Notes under the pieces: model-generated
The model's database searches: none
Seen by the model: the letters and a program-made list of their open reading frames with translations, nothing else
What the model was told of the DNA's origin: nothing
Position numbers and translations under genes: made by a program
Source: an uncultured Bacilli bacterium
Lineage (GTDB): Bacteria > Bacillota_I > Bacilli_A > RF39 > UBA660
DNA: 64,000 nucleotides
Reading direction: 5' to 3'
Assembly: GCA_910587325.1 (NCBI GenBank)
Contig: CAJUKB010000002.1
Coordinates: 32,349-96,348 of the forward strand
In this document: piece by piece, positions 16,386-24,251 of the stretch
How the letters are laid out: every line of letters starts with the position of its first letter
Numbering within the stretch: position 1 is the stretch's first letter

Positions 16386-17230
16386 TTATTCTTCTTTTAG
16401 CGTAGTAATTTCTTCTAATGATAAGTTAGTATATTTCATTATTTTATCTAAATCTTCACCCTCAAGTAACATTTTCCTAGCAGTTTTTATTGCATTTTCT
16501 TTTGCTCCTTCTTCTTTGGCAATAGAAATATCCGAATTATAACACTTACGCTTGTCTTCCTCTTCACTCATGTACTCCCGAAATCTTACATCTTTGTTAA
16601 TAATCTCTACATTCATTTTGTAATCCTCCACCCATTTATCTTTTTTGCTTAACTTTTCTATGTCATCAAGTCCTAAATACAACATAATCAAGTATTTGTA
16701 TTTCCCTATTTCTTTTTCATTTTTAGAATACCAAAACTCCATGATTTTGTCCATATTGTATTATAAGATTATAAAATTTTTTACAAACTTATGTTGTCTT
16801 TTATCTTGAATATAATATTTTCTTACAATCTCATTATCTTCTTTTCCTAGTCCATAAGTGAAATTAATTTGAATAATTTGCATGTCTTCTGTATATTTTT
16901 CTCCCACTAAAGTATAATGCGAATAATTATCACATTGGTAAGCTGTATTTCTACTATGTAAATAATCTTTTTTACATGTATTCATTTCTACATCAATTTT
17001 TCCTTGATTGGTGGTAAGGAGAATATCTAGATTTTTTCTTCGGACACTCAAATTGCTTGTATTTCGTTCTACATTTTTCTTACCATTTCTTTTATAGAAA
17101 CACCAAGTGCCATTTCTAAAATCTTTTTTAAAATTTCTTCATTTTTTTCGTTAAGTAAGACTTCTTTAAAAGCTCTATCGTTTCTACAAGTATATAATTT
17201 ATCATTTGTTTCAGTAGTTATTTTTCTCAC
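16386..17230 (-). pseudogene. Rpn/YhgA-like PD-(D/E)XK recombination-promoting nuclease / putative transposase, disrupted
   Basis: The gene survives as three fragments. The N-terminal piece (about 17230-17077, DRAFKEVLLNEKNEEILKKILEMALG) ends in TAG and a frameshift follows. The nuclease core (17051-16761, IDVEMN...IIQINF) ends in an in-frame TAA. The same frame then continues (YN-MDKIMEFWY...) to the typical C-terminal helix repeat (AKEEGAKENAIKTARKML..GEDLDKIMKYTNLSLEEI). Confidence 0.7.
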
Positions 17231-17335: not shown

Positions 17336-18202
17336 TTAACTATGTTTGTTTTTTAACTGCCTCTTTAGTTCTTCTCTATCATAGTCGATATATTGTCTTA
17401 AAAAATATATTTTATCTATATCTTTTTCAAATATTAGATTTGCCAATAAACAAGCATCTTCTAAATAAAGAATTGCATATGGTTTATTAGTAAGATAACT
17501 CCTATAATCAAAATATTCTAAATCAAGGAATGGAATTTTTTCTTGTAAATGATAAAACGTATTAATATAATTTTGCCATAGCCATGCATCATCACAACCA
17601 TTAGGAATTCTATATTCAATTATATCTGGAATAAAAGTATTATTTTTTAAACTATTTTTTAAAGCAATACAATATTCTTTATTATTCCTAAAACGGTTTA
17701 TATTAAATTCTTCAACTTTCCTACATTCCCAAATTTTAAAATATTTTTTTAAACTATTGGCATACGTAAGTGGCCTTAAAAATTCATGATTACTTGTGGA
17801 AAACTTAAATAAGATATGTTCAAATTTCATAAAAAATAGACAAAACTTAAAAAAGTCATTTATTGTCTTATAATGGACATCCATATTTATTTGAAATGCT
17901 GCATAATCAAAATTAATTTGACATTTTTTCATTCTTTCACTTAAAAGAAATAATTGATTCCACACTTCTTTTGTACCATATAATTTGGGTGTCTGTATTT
18001 CATATGGAAAGTCTGTTTTTAAACCCACATCTACTTCATAAGTATAACCCTTTTCTTTTAAACCCTCCATAATGTATTTTCTATCCATCTCATTAAAAAG
18101 ACCCATTTCTATTTCAAGACCAAATACGCGAGGAATTTCTAGATTATAACGATAGGGTAAATTGTCATATAATGCCACTTCAATTAATTCTTGATTTTTC
18201 AT
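17336..18202 (-). CDS. Hypothetical protein, possibly a divergent amidoligase (GS-like, Amidoligase_2-type)
   Basis: FGLEIEMG near the N-terminus, EIQTPKLYG, AAFQINMDV and IEYRIPNG near the C-terminus follow the order of amidoligase blocks (GvE.E / E..SP.l / H.H / iEfR), but the His pair is replaced. The start is the ATG at 18202, after GAAGGTG. The tracked start overlaps the promoter. Confidence 0.35.
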   Translation of the reverse strand: MKNQELIEVALYDNLPYRYNLEIPRVFGLEIEMGLFNEMDRKYIMEGLKEKGYTYEVDVGLKTDFPYEIQTPKLYGTKEVWNQLFLLSERMKKCQINFDYAAFQINMDVHYKTINDFFKFCLFFMKFEHILFKFSTSNHEFLRPLTYANSLKKYFKIWECRKVEEFNINRFRNNKEYCIALKNSLKNNTFIPDIIEYRIPNGCDDAWLWQNYINTFYHLQEKIPFLDLEYFDYRSYLTNKPYAILYLEDACLLANLIFEKDIDKIYFLRQYIDYDREELKRQLKNKHS

Positions 18203-18227
18203 AAGAGCACCTTCTGTAGTGAAAAAT

Positions 18228-18256
18228 ATTATATTTTTAAATATATGAAATGTCAA
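18228..18256 (-). promoter_or_regulatory. Perfect-consensus sigma-A promoter for the amidoligase-like gene
   Basis: On the minus strand, TTGACA (18256-18251), exactly 17 nt, TATAAT (18233-18228). The RBS and ATG lie about 25 nt downstream. Confidence 0.65.
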
Positions 18257-18343: not shown

Positions 18344-19018
18344 CTACCTTCTATTATTGCTATTCGTAAATATTAAAACTAATCTTACAATTTCTAAAGC
18401 ACTTGATAAAACCCCTGCAAGATAAGTAGAGGCTGCAGCAGAAAGCATCTTCGCTACGCCCTTTTGTTCTTCACTATTTGCTAATTCTAAGGCTTTAATT
18501 TCTTTTTTTGCTCTTTTACTTGCATCTATTTCAACCGGTAATGTAACAAGTTGAAATATAAGTCCTGTTCCTACAAGAAGTATACCTAGCCAAATCATAT
18601 TAATTGATTCCATTGCTAAACCTAAAAATATAACAAAATAGGATAGTCCTGTTGCAAAATGTACTACCGGAAATAATAAACTTCTAATACGCATGTAGGT
18701 GTAACCTACTTTATCTTGTATCGCATGTCCGCATTCATGAGCAGCAACGGATAATGCCGCAATACTAGAACCATGAAAAACTTCTTTTGAAAGTCTAACC
18801 ACTTTTCTTTTTGGGTCATAATGGTCAGTTAAATTTCCATTTACTTCTACGATATAAATGTCTTTTAAATCATTTTTATCTAGTATTTTTCTTGCTACTT
18901 CAAATCCCGTAATATTCGCTTCATTCTCGATATTTTTGTACTTACTATAACTTGATGAAACTAAAAATTGGGCAATGGCAGGTATAGCAAGCATAAGTAT
19001 AAAAATTAATAAATCCAT
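18344..19018 (-). CDS. Membrane zinc metallopeptidase (Zn_peptidase_2 family)
   Basis: HECGHAIQD zinc motif between TM helices, 224 aa, AAGAGG RBS. Confidence 0.8.
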   Translation of the reverse strand: MDLLIFILMLAIPAIAQFLVSSSYSKYKNIENEANITGFEVARKILDKNDLKDIYIVEVNGNLTDHYDPKRKVVRLSKEVFHGSSIAALSVAAHECGHAIQDKVGYTYMRIRSLLFPVVHFATGLSYFVIFLGLAMESINMIWLGILLVGTGLIFQLVTLPVEIDASKRAKKEIKALELANSEEQKGVAKMLSAAASTYLAGVLSSALEIVRLVLIFTNSNNRR

Positions 19019-19028
19019 AATCTACCTC

Positions 19029-20339
19029 TTATAATATATTTAGCGCAATCAGTTGCTCTCTTAAACTATCGGCACTCTCAAAGTCTTTATTATTACGTGC
19101 ATCTAACCAACTTTGGTAGAGTTCTTTATCGCTTTCACTAAATTCTTTTAATTCATAATAAAGTCCTAATATAGAATTGATTAGAATAATCTTATCATAA
19201 GTTTGTGAAATCTCTGTGTGGTTTCGAATACTTGTATTTAGTTCTTTTACTAAATCTAAAAGATAAGTAATTAAATTGGGAGTATTAAAATCATTATCCA
19301 TAATTTCATTAATATGTTCGTCTTTTGTTAAGTTGCCAACAGAAATATTTTCTAATTGAATTGTAATATTGGCCTGCTTTAAAGCATTATATACTTTGTC
19401 ATTAATAGCTACACATTCTGTAAAAGTGGTTTTGGTTAAATCTAATGGAGCACGATATTGGTTTTTTAAGAAAGCTAGTCTGATAACATTGCTTGGATAT
19501 TCTTTTCTTAAATCTTTTGCTAGAATAAAGTTATTTAAACTTTTGCTCATTTTTTCGCCTTCTACCATAATGTGACCATTGTGCATCCAATAGTTAGCTA
19601 AGTTATGATTCCAAGCTGCCTTACTTTGAGCCATTTCATTTTCATGATGGGGAAATTTCAAATCCACTCCTCCACCATGGATATCAATTTTTCCTTTAAA
19701 GATATCATGAATCATGACAACACATTCCGTGTGCCATCCAGGTCTTCCTGTTCCAAAAGGAGCATCCCAAATAATGCCTTCCTTTGTTTTTTTCCATAAA
19801 ACAAAGTCAAAAGGATTTTCTTTTTCTTCTGCTACATCAATTCTTTTTCCATAATCTAAGGCTTCTAAATTTTGTTTAGACAAGCATCCATAGTCTTTTA
19901 TCTTAGAAACTCTAAAATAGACATCATCGCCACTTTTATAAGCATACTCTTTTTCAAGTAATAGAGAGATAAAATCTATAATACTATCCATAGTTTCTGT
20001 TACACGAGGACGATAATCAATTGGTAAGCAATTTAGTCCTTCTAATTCTTCTAAATAGGCTTTGATAAACTTATCCGTGATTTCTTTTTCCGTTACAGAT
20101 AATTCAATAGCTGCCTTAATAATTTTGTCGTCTACATCGGTAAAATTAGATGCATAATTCACCTCAAATCCTGCATATTTCAAATAACGATACACCATAT
20201 CAAAAACAATAACCGGATACATATTTCCTACATGGGCGTAGTTATAAACAGTTGGTCCACATACATACATATTCACAACACCTGGTGTAATTGGTGTAAA
20301 CTCTTCTAATTTGTTTGTTAATGTATTAAATATTTTCAT
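19029..20339 (-). CDS. cysS: Cysteine--tRNA ligase
   Basis: CGPTVYNYAHVGN (HIGH region), zinc-site HTEC, and KMSKS are all present. 436 aa. Confidence 0.9.
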   Translation of the reverse strand: MKIFNTLTNKLEEFTPITPGVVNMYVCGPTVYNYAHVGNMYPVIVFDMVYRYLKYAGFEVNYASNFTDVDDKIIKAAIELSVTEKEITDKFIKAYLEELEGLNCLPIDYRPRVTETMDSIIDFISLLLEKEYAYKSGDDVYFRVSKIKDYGCLSKQNLEALDYGKRIDVAEEKENPFDFVLWKKTKEGIIWDAPFGTGRPGWHTECVVMIHDIFKGKIDIHGGGVDLKFPHHENEMAQSKAAWNHNLANYWMHNGHIMVEGEKMSKSLNNFILAKDLRKEYPSNVIRLAFLKNQYRAPLDLTKTTFTECVAINDKVYNALKQANITIQLENISVGNLTKDEHINEIMDNDFNTPNLITYLLDLVKELNTSIRNHTEISQTYDKIILINSILGLYYELKEFSESDKELYQSWLDARNNKDFESADSLREQLIALNIL

Positions 20340-20499: not shown

Positions 20500-21897
20500 T
20501 TATTCTCCCAATCTTTCTAAAATAGTTTCTTTCCCTAATAAATAGAGAACATCTAATAAATTAGGTCCACGCATAATCCCCGTTGTCGCAATACGGATTG
20601 GCATATACAGTAGATTTCCTGTAACTCCACTTTGTTCTTCTACTTGCTTAAGTATTTTTGCTACTTCTTCTAAGTTCCAATCGCTTGTACTTTCTATTTC
20701 GTTCTTAAATATTCTTAACGTATTTTCAATACTAACATCACTTTTTAAGAATGCAATACATTCTTCCTCCAATTCTAGATTGCTTATAAAAAACATATGA
20801 GCAGTCAAGGCTATTTCAGAAGCAAAATTCAAACGATTTTTATAAAGTAATAATAAATGGTTTATCCAATCTTCTCCTTTTCCTTCTACATTGTAAAACT
20901 TCTCTAAATAAGGGCGTACAAAGTCAACATACTCATTATCTGTCATTTCTTTTAAATAATGGCGATTAAACCATTCTAACTTTTTAATATCAAAATGACT
21001 AGGACGTTTGTTTATATTTTCTATTTTAAATTCTCTTACAAGTTCTTCCATTGTAAAAAATTCTTTTGTGGATTTAGAACTCCAACCTAAAAGAGCAATA
21101 TAGTTTAAAATAGCCTCTTTTAAAAATCCTTGTGCCAGTAAATCTGTTAAGTTATCAAAGGTATTGGCTATAATTCTAGGAATATGAATAAATTCAGGAG
21201 TTGGAAATCCTAAAGCCTCATATAGTAAAAGATATTTAGGAGTACTGGTTAAAAACTTAGAACTACTTGTAACATGAGTAATATTAAATAAGGCATCATC
21301 TAGAACACTCGCAAAGTTATAAGTAGGTGTTCCATCACTTTTGATTAAGATTTGGTCTTCTAAACAAGCATTTGGAGTTGTAACATCTCCATACACTAAA
21401 TCATGGAAAGTTGTTTGTCCTTCTTTTGAGAATGCTTCACGAATAACATATTTTTCTTCAATTAATATTTTACGACGTGCTTCATCTCTTGGAAAATTCC
21501 TACATGTTCCATCGTACATATAAGAAGTTTTAGCTTCACTTGCTTCTAATCTTTTCCTATTTAACTCTTCTTTTGTACAAAAACAATAATAGGCTTTCCC
21601 TCGTTTAATTAACTTCTCAGCATAGTTTTTATAAATATCTAAACGTTCACTTTGAATATAAGAAGTATTTTCCACTTCTTTTTTAGGTCCTTCATCATAA
21701 ACTAGTCCAAAGGTATTTAATGTATTGTAAATGGATTCTTCTGCTTCTAAATTGTATAGATTTTGGTTGGCGTCGTCTATTCTTAAAAGAAATTCTCCAC
21801 CCTCTTTTTTGGCAATTAAATAGGCAAATAAAGCATTTCGCAAATCTTCTATATCCATTCTATGAACAGGTGTCATAGCAAATCTTGTTCTAGTCAT
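20500..21897 (-). CDS. Glutamate--tRNA ligase homologue with degenerate catalytic motifs
   Basis: Collinear with bacterial GluRS over 465 aa (DGTPTYNFA, LGWS, FD.KKLEWFN, LYMPIRIATTG). The HIGH, RGEDH and KLSKR positions are replaced or deleted (see findings). AAAGAGG RBS. Confidence 0.75.
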   Translation of the reverse strand: MTRTRFAMTPVHRMDIEDLRNALFAYLIAKKEGGEFLLRIDDANQNLYNLEAEESIYNTLNTFGLVYDEGPKKEVENTSYIQSERLDIYKNYAEKLIKRGKAYYCFCTKEELNRKRLEASEAKTSYMYDGTCRNFPRDEARRKILIEEKYVIREAFSKEGQTTFHDLVYGDVTTPNACLEDQILIKSDGTPTYNFASVLDDALFNITHVTSSSKFLTSTPKYLLLYEALGFPTPEFIHIPRIIANTFDNLTDLLAQGFLKEAILNYIALLGWSSKSTKEFFTMEELVREFKIENINKRPSHFDIKKLEWFNRHYLKEMTDNEYVDFVRPYLEKFYNVEGKGEDWINHLLLLYKNRLNFASEIALTAHMFFISNLELEEECIAFLKSDVSIENTLRIFKNEIESTSDWNLEEVAKILKQVEEQSGVTGNLLYMPIRIATTGIMRGPNLLDVLYLLGKETILERLGE

Positions 21898-21970
21898 AAA
21901 AAGGCCTCTTTTCTACTCTTTTTTCTACATTAAGTATACCACAAAGGTGTATTTTTTTCTTTATAAAGAG

Positions 21971-22001
21971 AAAAAAATAGCTTAGAAAGCGTTCTAAACT
22001 A
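21971..22001 (-). terminator. Intrinsic terminator after clpC
   Basis: On the minus strand, TAGTTTAGAA-CGC-TTCTAAGCTA, with one U-G wobble that would be a C-A mismatch on the plus strand. TTTTTTTCTC follows. Confidence 0.6.
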
Positions 22002-22094
22002 TTTTTATAAAATTATTTATGCTTTGACCATAAATAAGAAATTGTAATAATTCTAAATTGCAATCAACTTATTACTAATTCATCATATCATACC

Positions 22095-24251
22095 TTAAAG
22101 TGGAATTTCAATATCAATTTCATTATTGTATTTTAAAATTAAATTTTTTAAATTACGAAGACCAAATTTTTCACACTCTGCTTCTTTTTTGATTTGAGAA
22201 AATTTAATCTTTTTATTAGTTAAATTCTTTTTGGTATATTCTTTTAAGACTGCCTCAGGCAAGTTTTCAAACGTAATAACATCCGTAAATCTTCCTAGAA
22301 ATTCTTTACTAAAAGTTTCAGGCAAGGTGTTATTCTCTTTGTTTGTAAATCCTACACTATTACTTGCTACAACATTGCTAGTCATAAAAAGCATAGTGTT
22401 GGTAAAATCAATTTTTTCTCCCTTAGCACTTGTAACAAAACCTTCATCCATTATTTGTAAAAATAAGTTTAATACACGAGGATGGGCTTTTTCAATCTCA
22501 TCTACTAAGATAATGGAATAAGGATTATCTAATACACTTCTAAAAATATAAGCATCTTCATACCCCACATAACCAGCACTGACTCCAATTAGTTTATTCA
22601 CAGAAGTATCAAGATTGTATTCACTCATATCTAGGCGAATTAATTTGCTTTTTGGAATACTTTTGGAAATTAATTTTACGCTTTCCGTTTTTCCAACTCC
22701 GCTTGGTCCATTTAAAAGTAAGGTCAGTGGTTTTTCTGTATTGTTTAGTTTAAGCCAAACATTTTGTAAAATCTTTGCTATGGCTCTTTCTTGTCCTAAA
22801 ATATTACTAACTAAGTTCTTTTTAATGTTTTTAAATAACTTTTCTTTATTTTCTAACATAGGAATATTGGTTTTCTTTTCAATTGTTTCTAAAATATCTT
22901 GTTTCGTAATGGTATTGCATTTTTTGCTTGCTTTCTTTTCGAGTTGTAATGCTAGTAAATTTTCTTGTTCTTTACATCTCGTTGCTACGTCATAATCATT
23001 TTTCTTTATAGCTTCTTTCTTTTCTTCTTTTATCATTTCTAATTTTTTATTGAGTGCAACAAGTTCTTTAAATGAAATATCTTTTACTTTTTGTCTAGCG
23101 CAAATCATATCAAGTAAATCAATTGACTTATCCGGATTGCTTTTGGTTTTGATGTATTTGTCTGCAAGAGATACTATATCCTCTATATTTTCTTCACTAA
23201 TGACTAAATGATGATGACGTTCGTATTCTTCTTTCACTCCAAGTAAAATACTCTTGGTTTTTTCTAAATCTGGTTCACTAACTTGGATGGCATAGAAACG
23301 TCTTTCTAAGGCTTTGTCTTTATAAATGGAATTATAGTACTCCTCTGTTGTTGTAGCTCCAATACATTTGATTTCTCCTCTAGCAAGATAAGGTTTTAGA
23401 ATATCGGAGGCATTAATAGCACCTTCTGCTCCTCCGGCATTAATCATTGTATGAATTTCATCTATAAATAAAATAATATCCCCATTTTCCATAACTTCTT
23501 TAATGATTTTCGTTAAACGTTCTTCAAATTCTCCACGATATTTTGTTCCAGAAACTAAAGAACCCATTTCTAGCATTACAATCGTTTTATTTAAAAGTTC
23601 ATGTGGGACTAGGCCTTTATTTATTCTTCTTGCAAGTTCTTCCACAATCGCCGTTTTTCCAACTCCAGCACGACCTATAAGCAAAGGATTGCTTTTTTTC
23701 TTTCGAAGAAGAGCTTCAATTACTAAAGCGATTTCCTCTTCTCTTCCAAGCACGCTTTCATGTTCATCCACGCTTTTATTTAAGTTATTGCCAATTTCCA
23801 TAATTTCTAATTTATCATTTTTATTTCTCACTAAACTAAATTTTAGCTCTTCATAAAGACTATCCAAATCAATATCTAAACCAAGCATAATTCTAATGGC
23901 TATTCCTTCGCCTTCTTCTAGCATAGCCAAAAATAAGTGTCTTTCTGTTACTTTGCCTTTATTATTCTCATTAGCATCATTGGTAGCATTCTCTATAATT
24001 CTCTTTAAAAGAGGAGTGTATAAAACAAAATCGGTATCTTTGTTTGATGTGCCAACAACATTGATAAGTTCACTTTTAAAAATTTCAAAAGTAAGTCCAT
24101 AAAACTTTAATTTTTTACTTACTTCGTTTTCTCCATCTAATAAGGCAAGTAATAAGTGTTCACTTCCTACGTAGGGGTGTTTAAGACTTTTGCGTAATTT
24201 TTCTGCTTTTTTAAAAATTCCTGCTATTTCAATTCCATAATTATCAAACAT
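22095..24251 (-). CDS. clpC: ATP-dependent Clp protease ATP-binding subunit (ClpC-type, compact 718 aa)
   Basis: Clp N-domain repeats, two AAA+ modules (GRAGVGKTA, GPSGVGKTE), and a VGF ClpP-docking tripeptide. AGGAGG RBS. Confidence 0.85.
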   Translation of the reverse strand: MFDNYGIEIAGIFKKAEKLRKSLKHPYVGSEHLLLALLDGENEVSKKLKFYGLTFEIFKSELINVVGTSNKDTDFVLYTPLLKRIIENATNDANENNKGKVTERHLFLAMLEEGEGIAIRIMLGLDIDLDSLYEELKFSLVRNKNDKLEIMEIGNNLNKSVDEHESVLGREEEIALVIEALLRKKKSNPLLIGRAGVGKTAIVEELARRINKGLVPHELLNKTIVMLEMGSLVSGTKYRGEFEERLTKIIKEVMENGDIILFIDEIHTMINAGGAEGAINASDILKPYLARGEIKCIGATTTEEYYNSIYKDKALERRFYAIQVSEPDLEKTKSILLGVKEEYERHHHLVISEENIEDIVSLADKYIKTKSNPDKSIDLLDMICARQKVKDISFKELVALNKKLEMIKEEKKEAIKKNDYDVATRCKEQENLLALQLEKKASKKCNTITKQDILETIEKKTNIPMLENKEKLFKNIKKNLVSNILGQERAIAKILQNVWLKLNNTEKPLTLLLNGPSGVGKTESVKLISKSIPKSKLIRLDMSEYNLDTSVNKLIGVSAGYVGYEDAYIFRSVLDNPYSIILVDEIEKAHPRVLNLFLQIMDEGFVTSAKGEKIDFTNTMLFMTSNVVASNSVGFTNKENNTLPETFSKEFLGRFTDVITFENLPEAVLKEYTKKNLTNKKIKFSQIKKEAECEKFGLRNLKNLILKYNNEIDIEIPL

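Follow-up and report, generated by a model that had tools for sequence, protein, structure and literature searches.

A full-length glutamyl-tRNA synthetase ortholog of uncultured Bacilli that lacks the class I catalytic motifs is a candidate tRNA-binding pseudo-synthetase

Catalytically dead relatives of aminoacyl-tRNA synthetases (aaRSs) have been described, and they are normally extra paralogs or truncated domains. The classic bacterial pseudo-synthetase is HisZ, a class II HisRS-like protein that is the regulatory subunit of ATP phosphoribosyltransferase and has HisG as its partner. Among the glutamyl-tRNA synthetases (GluRSs), one of the copies in Thermotoga maritima is reported to be inactive in vitro and to charge neither tRNA(Glu) nor tRNA(Gln), and the same has been predicted for Acidobacteria (Dasgupta and Basu, 2014, PMC3927822). 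A 2022 review of aaRS duplicates gives YadB/GluQRS as the sole paralog derived from GluRS (PMC9437257), and we found no description of a full-length bacterial GluRS without its motifs in the literature searched. Here we describe such a protein, encoded by a gltX-like gene in a 64,000-nucleotide stretch of DNA from an uncultured Bacilli bacterium (GCA_910587325.1, contig CAJUKB010000002.1; hereafter the window). Judged by its sequence, gltX-like is an ortholog turned pseudoenzyme, which fails as a catalytic GluRS yet passes the profile cutoff for that family. Such an origin would be unusual, since it is the housekeeping ortholog itself, at a conserved locus and with all of its tRNA-binding domains, that appears to have lost the class I motifs throughout a clade and is still kept by selection, with an acidic motif newly conserved.

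The gene and its immediate surroundings have the following features:

20500..21897, minus strand: gltX-derived open reading frame (ORF) of 465 aa with an ATG start (ORF list, Pfam, TIGR00464, Protein Data Bank (PDB) alignments, AlphaFold2 (AF2), Foldseek)
20509..20919, minus strand: anticodon-binding domain PF19269 (Anticodon_2), residues 327-463, with conserved R435, G444, P445 and L447 (Pfam scan)
21905..21910, minus strand: Shine-Dalgarno sequence AAGAGG, 7 nt before the gltX-like ATG (read from the sequence)
21933..21941, minus strand: extended -10-like element TGnTATACT, about 40 nt upstream of the ORF (read by eye)

An earlier note on this DNA had described the product as collinear with bacterial GluRS from end to end, and this description was borne out. 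The bacterial gltX profile TIGR00464 aligned with residues 2-464 over its positions 2-464 of 470, with a score of 427.5 bits against a cutoff of 289.95, and PF00749 (tRNA-synt_1c) covered residues 3-309 with 244 bits ahead of PF19269. The protein was far below the cutoffs of each of the GluQRS, archaeal GluRS and GlnRS profiles. The AF2 model, built from a 63-sequence alignment, has a complete GluRS fold with a mean predicted local distance difference test score (pLDDT) of 93.6 and a predicted template modeling score of 0.88, and Foldseek matched it to the GluRS structures 4gri, 6brl, 2cfo and 1j09 with template modeling (TM) scores of 0.88-0.90. Its sole soft spot is the block of residues 241-250 (pLDDT 78), which is the site of a deleted loop. 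The ORF is called from the earliest start codon that follows the upstream stop, which leaves no room for a longer N-terminus with a hidden HIGH motif. A promoter and terminator consensus scan, which needs a -35 element, called nothing specific around the gene, the extended -10 element included. Directly after clpC there is a hairpin rich in AT (21971-22003, minus strand; ATAGTTTAGAA-cgct-TTCTAAGCTAT, then T7), which resembles an intrinsic terminator but contains fewer G-C pairs than the consensus scan demands and, if real, would make gltX-like its own transcription unit.

Class I synthetases are defined by the transition-state motifs HIGH and KMSKS. To place the motif columns we used HMMER alignments to the GluRS structures of Borrelia burgdorferi (4gri), T. 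maritima (2o5r) and Thermus thermophilus (1g59), along with a MAFFT alignment of the 119 best database homologs, among which the 91 HIGH-bearing relatives served as the canonical comparison set. Neither HIGH nor KMSKS was found anywhere in the gltX-like protein in these alignments. In both the PDB and the MAFFT alignments the canonical APSPTGxMHIGNLRSA has become AMTPVHRMDIEDLRNA, and the altered sites, all identified from the alignments, are as follows:

21844..21855, minus strand: D-I-E-D in place of HIGH (H-I/V-G-N in relatives), residues 15-18, part of D-x-x-D-L-R-[ND]-A
21766..21783, minus strand: RIDDAN in place of RIEDTD, residues 39-44
21253..21279, minus strand: THVTSSSKF in place of THVTRGxEY, residues 207-215, with the glutamate-pocket Arg changed to Ser and the aromatic residue to Phe
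21145..21177, minus strand: site of an in-frame deletion of nine residues that removes the KMSKS (K[LI]SKR) loop, residues 241-251

The first three of these replacements had been put forward in the earlier note and were confirmed, with HIGH placed nowhere else in the protein. The note had also been right that the KMSKS-type loop is missing; however, its estimate of about 11 lost residues was too high, as the deletion amounts to nine whether counted against the nearest relatives or against the PDB sequences. The residues H15, P8, S9, R211 and Y215 are each found in 100% of the 91 canonical relatives, an invariance which argues that the motif loss is not alignment noise, and K[LIMFY]SKR is matched by 79 of the 91. 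At the glutamate-pocket positions R5 and Y193 (T. thermophilus Y187) are kept, and the changes are S9 to T, E41 to D, N197 to S, R211 to S and Y215 to F. In T. thermophilus numbering, H15 and G17 of HIGH are gone, S9, E41, N191, R205 and W209 are replaced, and R5 and Y187 remain; in the published structures R5, S9, E41, Y187, N191, R205 and W209 are residues of the glutamate/ATP pocket.

These substitutions are not confined to one genome. The identical protein is present in two other metagenome-assembled genomes (MAGs) at NCBI, GCA_950079075.1 and GCA_948716395.1, and in the independent Logan assemblies SRR27143828 and SRR12334846; its occurrence in four independent assemblies rules out an assembly error, which the earlier note had left as an alternative. 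That note had also proposed looking for the substitutions in related genomes, and there they are shared. Among the 120 best clusters at 90% identity, 28 lack the HIGH histidine, or 25 after near-identical ones are dropped, so that the motif-less relatives number at least 25 non-redundant proteins with identities down to 53%. In a neighbor-joining tree they form a single clade nested within the canonical GluRSs of AT-rich uncultured Bacilli. The clade has a common replacement motif, [MI]-D-[IV]-x-D-L-R-[ND]-A, in which D18 is conserved in 96% and D15 in 84% of the 25 members. Other shared changes are N44 for D (92%, 23/25), F215 for Y (80%) and F302 for Y (84%); T43 has mostly become A, position 41 is E or D, and position 211 is variable (S, R, N, M or K). 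Based on the lack of both HIGH and KMSKS, the acidified pocket and the variability at the pocket Arg position, it is very probable that class I adenylation by this protein is impossible.

A basal subclade (P0020, P0022, P0026 and P0033; relatives are given by P numbers and loci by L numbers) has D-I-E-D together with a K/R-rich loop that lacks the KMSKS consensus, and all clade members outside it carry the loop deletion. This distribution implies that HIGH was lost before or along with KMSKS and that the loop was excised later. The changes N18D (fourth HIGH position, 21844-21846) and D44N (fourth EDTD position, 21766-21768) occur together across the clade. Taken as a pair they look like a charge swap in which an acidic residue was relocated within the former ATP pocket, and the ATP site, once emptied, may simply have been filled and stabilized by N44 and the conserved D-x-x-D. 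Outside the clade, K[LIMFY]SKR is missing from 12 of the 91 HIGH-bearing relatives, all of them among the closest (P0023, P0029, P0036, P0046, P0051, P0054, P0057-59, P0063, P0064 and P0066; loci L089 and L099-L107), with loops such as TLEKR, LIKNY, LTKTN and KLSKC. This suggests that redundancy for GluRS catalysis may be older than the clade, and gltX may have undergone catalytic erosion outside the D-x-x-D clade too.

The earlier note had judged the ORF to be intact, with a good ribosome-binding site, and not to be decaying, and the selection analyses agree. No stop codon or frameshift occurs in any member of the clade (at least 25 diverged lineages), despite saturated synonymous sites (synonymous divergence, dS, >1). 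Ratios of nonsynonymous to synonymous divergence (dN/dS) were estimated pairwise from codon alignments by NG86 and YN00. Since the coding DNA of the four assemblies is essentially identical and carries no strain-level signal of selection, more distant members were used:

gltX-like, P0001 versus P0005 (90% aa identity): dN/dS 0.08-0.12, dS 0.5-0.66
gltX-like, P0001 versus P0129 (78% aa identity): dN/dS 0.12, dS >1
gltX-like, P0026 versus P0033: dN/dS 0.05-0.13, dS 0.8-1.8
cysS, same genome pairs: dN/dS 0.02-0.05
clpC, same genome pairs: dN/dS 0.03-0.09
Zn peptidase gene, same genome pairs: dN/dS 0.03-0.12

Overall the gltX-like ratio was 0.08-0.14, being 0.08-0.12 at a dS of about 0.5-0.66 and about 0.12-0.14 at a dS of at least 1.05. 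This is about three to five times the ratio of the neighboring CysRS; between the P0001 and P0033 genomes the CysRSs are 89% identical and the GluRS-like proteins 59%. By domain, dN/dS was 0.09-0.12 for the Rossmann fold, 0.03-0.13 for the acceptor-binding insertion, 0.09-0.16 for the stem-contact fold and 0.14-0.20 for the anticodon-binding domain. As read from these sequences, the pattern is that of a protein freed from one set of constraints and still needed.

Where the constraint lies was compared as mean pairwise identity within the clade and within the canonical set, both of which are 0.62 overall:

Rossmann, first half: clade 0.63, canonical 0.71
Rossmann, second half: clade 0.67, canonical 0.78
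Acceptor-binding insertion: clade 0.70, canonical 0.60
Stem-contact fold: clade 0.65, canonical 0.65
Anticodon-binding, first subdomain: clade 0.60, canonical 0.55
Anticodon-binding, second subdomain: clade 0.48, canonical 0.46

The acceptor-binding insertion domain retains the cysteines of the Zn knuckle:

21502..21585, minus strand: C105-x-C107...C132, retained Zn-knuckle cysteines (alignment)

C105 and C107 are invariant in the clade and C132 is kept in 23 of 25 members; presumably these are the equivalents of the C-x-C...C cysteines that are Zn ligands in the Escherichia coli and B. burgdorferi GluRSs. R435, G444, P445 and L447 are as conserved in the clade as in canonical GluRSs, and in the T. 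thermophilus complex the corresponding residues form the lining of the anticodon pocket. At the site that matches T. thermophilus R358, 20 of the 25 clade members have R or K.

The genes around gltX-like show which gene it descends from. The synteny anchors in the window are:

22095..24251, minus strand: clpC, the upstream neighbor (ORF list, Pfam, homologous loci)
19029..20339, minus strand: cysS, the downstream neighbor, a canonical CysRS with HVGN, HTEC and KMSKS (translation, Pfam, TIGR00435 with 488 bits)
18344..19018, minus strand: Zn_peptidase_2 gene, after cysS (Pfam, homologous loci)

The order in the window is ribosomal protein genes/rpoA/rplQ, clpC, gltX-like, cysS and Zn_peptidase_2, with an SDR gene, UvrA and Lgt further on. 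The retention of all three motifs by the neighboring cysS is as the earlier note had it. Among the relatives the arrangements are:

P0120, canonical motifs: clpC-gltX-cysS-Zn peptidase-mrnC-rlmB-sigH
P0051, HIGH intact, loop TLEKR: clpC-gltX-cysS-...-Zn peptidase-...-SDR-UvrA (six MAGs)
P0023, HIGH intact, loop KLSKC: clpC-helix-turn-helix (HTH) gene-gltX
P0025, canonical motifs: Ppx-gltX
P0026, degenerate motifs: clpC-HTH-Ppx-gltX-like

The gltX-like gene is thus the positional ortholog of the housekeeping gltX and not a paralog. The Ppx-gltX arrangement that the canonical P0025 has in common with its degenerate sister P0026 indicates that the degenerate gene arose from the ancestral housekeeping gltX by changes in place. 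The earlier note's reading of a non-decaying GluRS scaffold without adenylation signatures stands, but the paralog that it listed among its options does not, since the clpC-gltX-cysS locus is shared with canonical relatives.

There was no conserved, clade-specific neighbor gene beside gltX-like, and no regulatory RNA or T-box around it in Rfam searches at the gathering threshold or at E values up to 1. In several relatives, both degenerate and canonical, a 185-aa ORF without a Pfam match (HLAIAKKY...WFLHLVTDY) begins 1-3 nt from the stop of gltX or gltX-like (L092:11412-11969, L006:9963-10520 and L090:2066-2623; split in L005:4061-4615), whereas the window has no such ORF between gltX-like and cysS. 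We rejected it as a partner of gltX-like because in L005 it comes after a canonical gltX and because the window lacks it. A pair of AbiEi-like/AbiEii toxin-antitoxin genes is inserted downstream of gltX or gltX-like at L091:9498-10962 and L005:4766-6209; the antitoxins of the degenerate-gltX and canonical-gltX genomes are 79% identical, which indicates that the L091 and L005 organisms are close relatives.

If the gltX-like protein does not charge tRNA, the cell should have another source of Glu-tRNA. Pfam scans of the window, which included 38 further larger ORFs, identified no other aaRS of the GluRS/GlnRS type and no gat gene. Our scan of a genome collection with generic GluRS peptides gave, among the matches listed, mostly GluRSs of Clostridia with 38-42% identity, together with L009, from an uncultured Bacilli bacterium of the rabbit gut. 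The canonical relatives P0025, P0023, P0120 and P0051 are all at the orthologous locus and all in MAGs other than those of the clade members. At L006:12107-13501 (GCA_949025205.1), the cysS (464 aa) beside the degenerate gltX is only 37-41% identical to its sibling cysS genes (window 19029-20339 and L090/L091/L092), which share 87-96% identity among themselves. It looks as if another aaRS of the lineage has here been exchanged in place for a xenolog.

We consider the most likely function of the gltX-like protein to be that of a catalytically inactive tRNA-binding or tRNA-handling protein kept by selection, and we hold this with moderate confidence. The constraint that is retained suggests that the protein still recognizes tRNA(Glu) and/or tRNA(Gln), by way of the tRNA body and the anticodon. 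In the scheme that we propose, the ancestral housekeeping gltX of an AT-rich gut Bacilli lineage would have been converted in place to a pseudo-synthetase. With HIGH and the KMSKS loop, which provide ATP binding and transition-state stabilization, and about half of the glutamate-pocket residues replaced or deleted, the protein would form no glutamyl-adenylate and carry out no class I charging. Purifying selection would have maintained its complete five-domain fold, with the stem-contact fold and the acceptor-binding domain and its Zn knuckle, as well as the residues of the anticodon pocket. The protein would persist as one that binds tRNA(Glu), tRNA(Gln) or both and that keeps hold of the tRNA, sequesters it or passes it on, and the ancestral enzyme would already have had this moonlighting role. 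Glu-tRNA would then be synthesized by another enzyme encoded elsewhere in the genome. We infer the catalytic inactivity and the tRNA binding from patterns of conservation, and a replacement GluRS is likewise presumed to exist.

Several observations weigh against this proposal. The former ATP/CCA pocket has gained two to three acidic residues, which should repel the 3' end of a tRNA, and binding may consequently involve only the tRNA body and anticodon, or another ligand. Of the four regions, the anticodon-binding domain shows the highest dN/dS within the clade (0.14-0.20). The profile score is still above the curated TIGR00464 cutoff. Searches of the 64-kb window by tblastn with degenerate and canonical GluRS queries gave no second gltX, and among the matches listed in the genome-collection scan there was one clade member (L009) and no second copy.

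The last two of these points, along with the housekeeping locus and the gene's own ribosome-binding site and -10 element, are what would be expected if the protein were still the sole GluRS of the cell, working by a non-canonical catalysis in which, for example, acidic residues and Mg2+ replace HIGH and KMSKS. We regard this as very unlikely, as the motifs lost are those that define the class, the glutamate-pocket Arg is also gone from a position that is variable in the clade, and the protein has evolved far faster than the CysRS of the same two genomes (59% versus 89% identity), unlike an essential lone synthetase. It is also highly improbable that the clade has no other GluRS homolog at all, in which case either the motif-less protein charges tRNA(Glu) by a chemistry outside class I or a different enzyme, such as AspRS, supplies Glu-tRNA(Glu). 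A GluRS-like side activity has been reported for bacterial AspRS (PMC6523644), and were such an enzyme the source, the old GluRS would be left with tRNA handling as its only role. The loss of all catalytic signatures would be expected of a dead gene, but we give next to no credence to a decaying pseudogene or a sequencing or assembly artifact: the reading frame is open in at least 25 lineages diverged beyond a dS of 1, dN/dS is about 0.1, the loop deletion is in frame, the same DNA is present in four assemblies and AF2 predicts the fold with confidence. This explanation is refuted by the data on selection and replication.

There are two further explanations in which the fold is kept for something other than tRNA handling. 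The protein may be a scaffold for protein-protein contacts, its partner being, for example, GatCAB (as in the glutamine transamidosome of Thermotoga), a second synthetase or a regulator, and tRNA binding would then not be under selection. Constraint over the whole protein, the Rossmann core included, would suit such a role, as would the alignment of the AF2 model with the transamidosome GluRS chain 3al0_C (TM 0.81) and the acidic substitutions, which speak against binding of the tRNA 3' end. We nevertheless find it doubtful, because the conserved anticodon-pocket residues and Zn-knuckle acceptor-binding domain are most simply explained by RNA binding, and because no partner was found and the window has no gat gene. 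Alternatively, a new enzyme may have arisen on the old scaffold, binding charged Glu-tRNA(Glu) or some other ligand and using the acidic pocket of D15, D18 and N44 for a different reaction, such as glutamate transfer to an acceptor. The replacement residues are themselves conserved (84, 96 and 92%, respectively) on a Rossmann fold under purifying selection (dN/dS 0.09-0.12), and aaRS-like enzymes without HIGH and KMSKS that use aminoacyl-tRNA, such as the cyclodipeptide synthases (PMC3105412), provide a precedent. However, the high variability of pocket positions 8, 9, 11 and 211 within the clade is not what a tuned active site would show, no nucleophile is conserved (only 10/25 members have Cys9), and no conserved partner or biosynthetic gene adjoins gltX-like, the 185-aa neighbor being one that accompanies canonical gltX too. 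A new enzyme is, on this balance, unlikely, and a non-catalytic tRNA-binding protein is the explanation that we prefer.

Other genes of the window are peripheral to gltX-like. After the Zn peptidase gene there is a 306-aa ORF (17336-18256, minus strand) with a weak match to Amidoligase_2 (E value 0.009), whose counterpart in L001-L004 is a 288-aa gene without a Pfam match; PDDEXK_2/Rpn-like fragments adjoin it (16761-17051, minus strand). A Spo0A homolog (45587-46366, minus strand; Spo0A_C, 139 bits) and genes for two large proteins (39722-42655, minus strand), of which one has a pilin-type N-methylation motif and the other a cadherin-like domain, sit among genes for glycolysis, ClpP, WhiA and FtsEX, which is ordinary chromosomal core for Bacillota.

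If the gltX-like protein is a tRNA-binding pseudo-synthetase, then an essential synthetase of this lineage must have been replaced by a non-orthologous or xenologous one, and the original protein must have a second selectable function that is independent of catalysis. The gene would thus be a natural separation-of-function allele for the non-catalytic roles of GluRS. There is also a practical consequence, as a score above the curated GluRS cutoff means that pipelines would annotate the protein as "glutamate--tRNA ligase", and such an annotation would make metabolic and essential-gene reconstructions of these gut MAGs wrong. The partial erosion of KMSKS in neighboring lineages implies that the process may extend beyond the clade.

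With canonical bacterial GluRSs (TIGR00464; 4GRI, 1J09/1G59) the gltX-like protein has in common its five-domain architecture, length, fold, Bacillota locus, Zn-knuckle cysteines and anticodon-pocket residues, and it differs from them in having D-x-x-D for HIGH, no KMSKS loop, DDAN for EDTD and neither the Arg nor the aromatic residue of the glutamate pocket. The inactive T. maritima GluRS, or type 1 GluRS2, is likewise a full-length homolog of bacterial GluRS, but it is a paralog, and in our HMMER alignment both T. maritima GluRS sequences in the PDB keep HIGH and KLSKR. We therefore rejected an assignment to GluRS2, an extra paralog that keeps its motifs, for a positional ortholog without them. 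GluQRS/YadB is a homolog of the GluRS catalytic domain with a non-translational role on tRNA; it is catalytically active and has no anticodon-binding domain. This family (TIGR03838) was also rejected, based on a score of 156.3 bits against a cutoff of 276.7 and on the presence of PF19269 at residues 327-463. Cyclodipeptide synthases (PMC3105412) are similarly aaRS-like proteins with a Rossmann fold that lack HIGH and KMSKS and act on tRNA. Unlike gltX-like, they are small, single-domain, TyrRS/TrpRS-like proteins with a conserved catalytic Ser and are encoded in biosynthetic clusters; no conserved Ser of that kind and no biosynthetic cluster were found at gltX-like.

The gltX-like protein combines the features by which a pseudo-synthetase is recognized: homology to an aaRS, loss of the catalytic residues, an intact reading frame and purifying selection across lineages. 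In this it resembles HisZ and other non-catalytic aaRS-like proteins, which are aaRS homologs without aminoacylation motifs that have been selected for another role, a concept treated in general terms in PMC9437257. HisZ, however, is a paralog that occurs beside HisRS, has no anticodon-binding function and acts with a known partner, whereas gltX-like appears to be the degenerated housekeeping ortholog itself, with all of its tRNA-binding domains kept.

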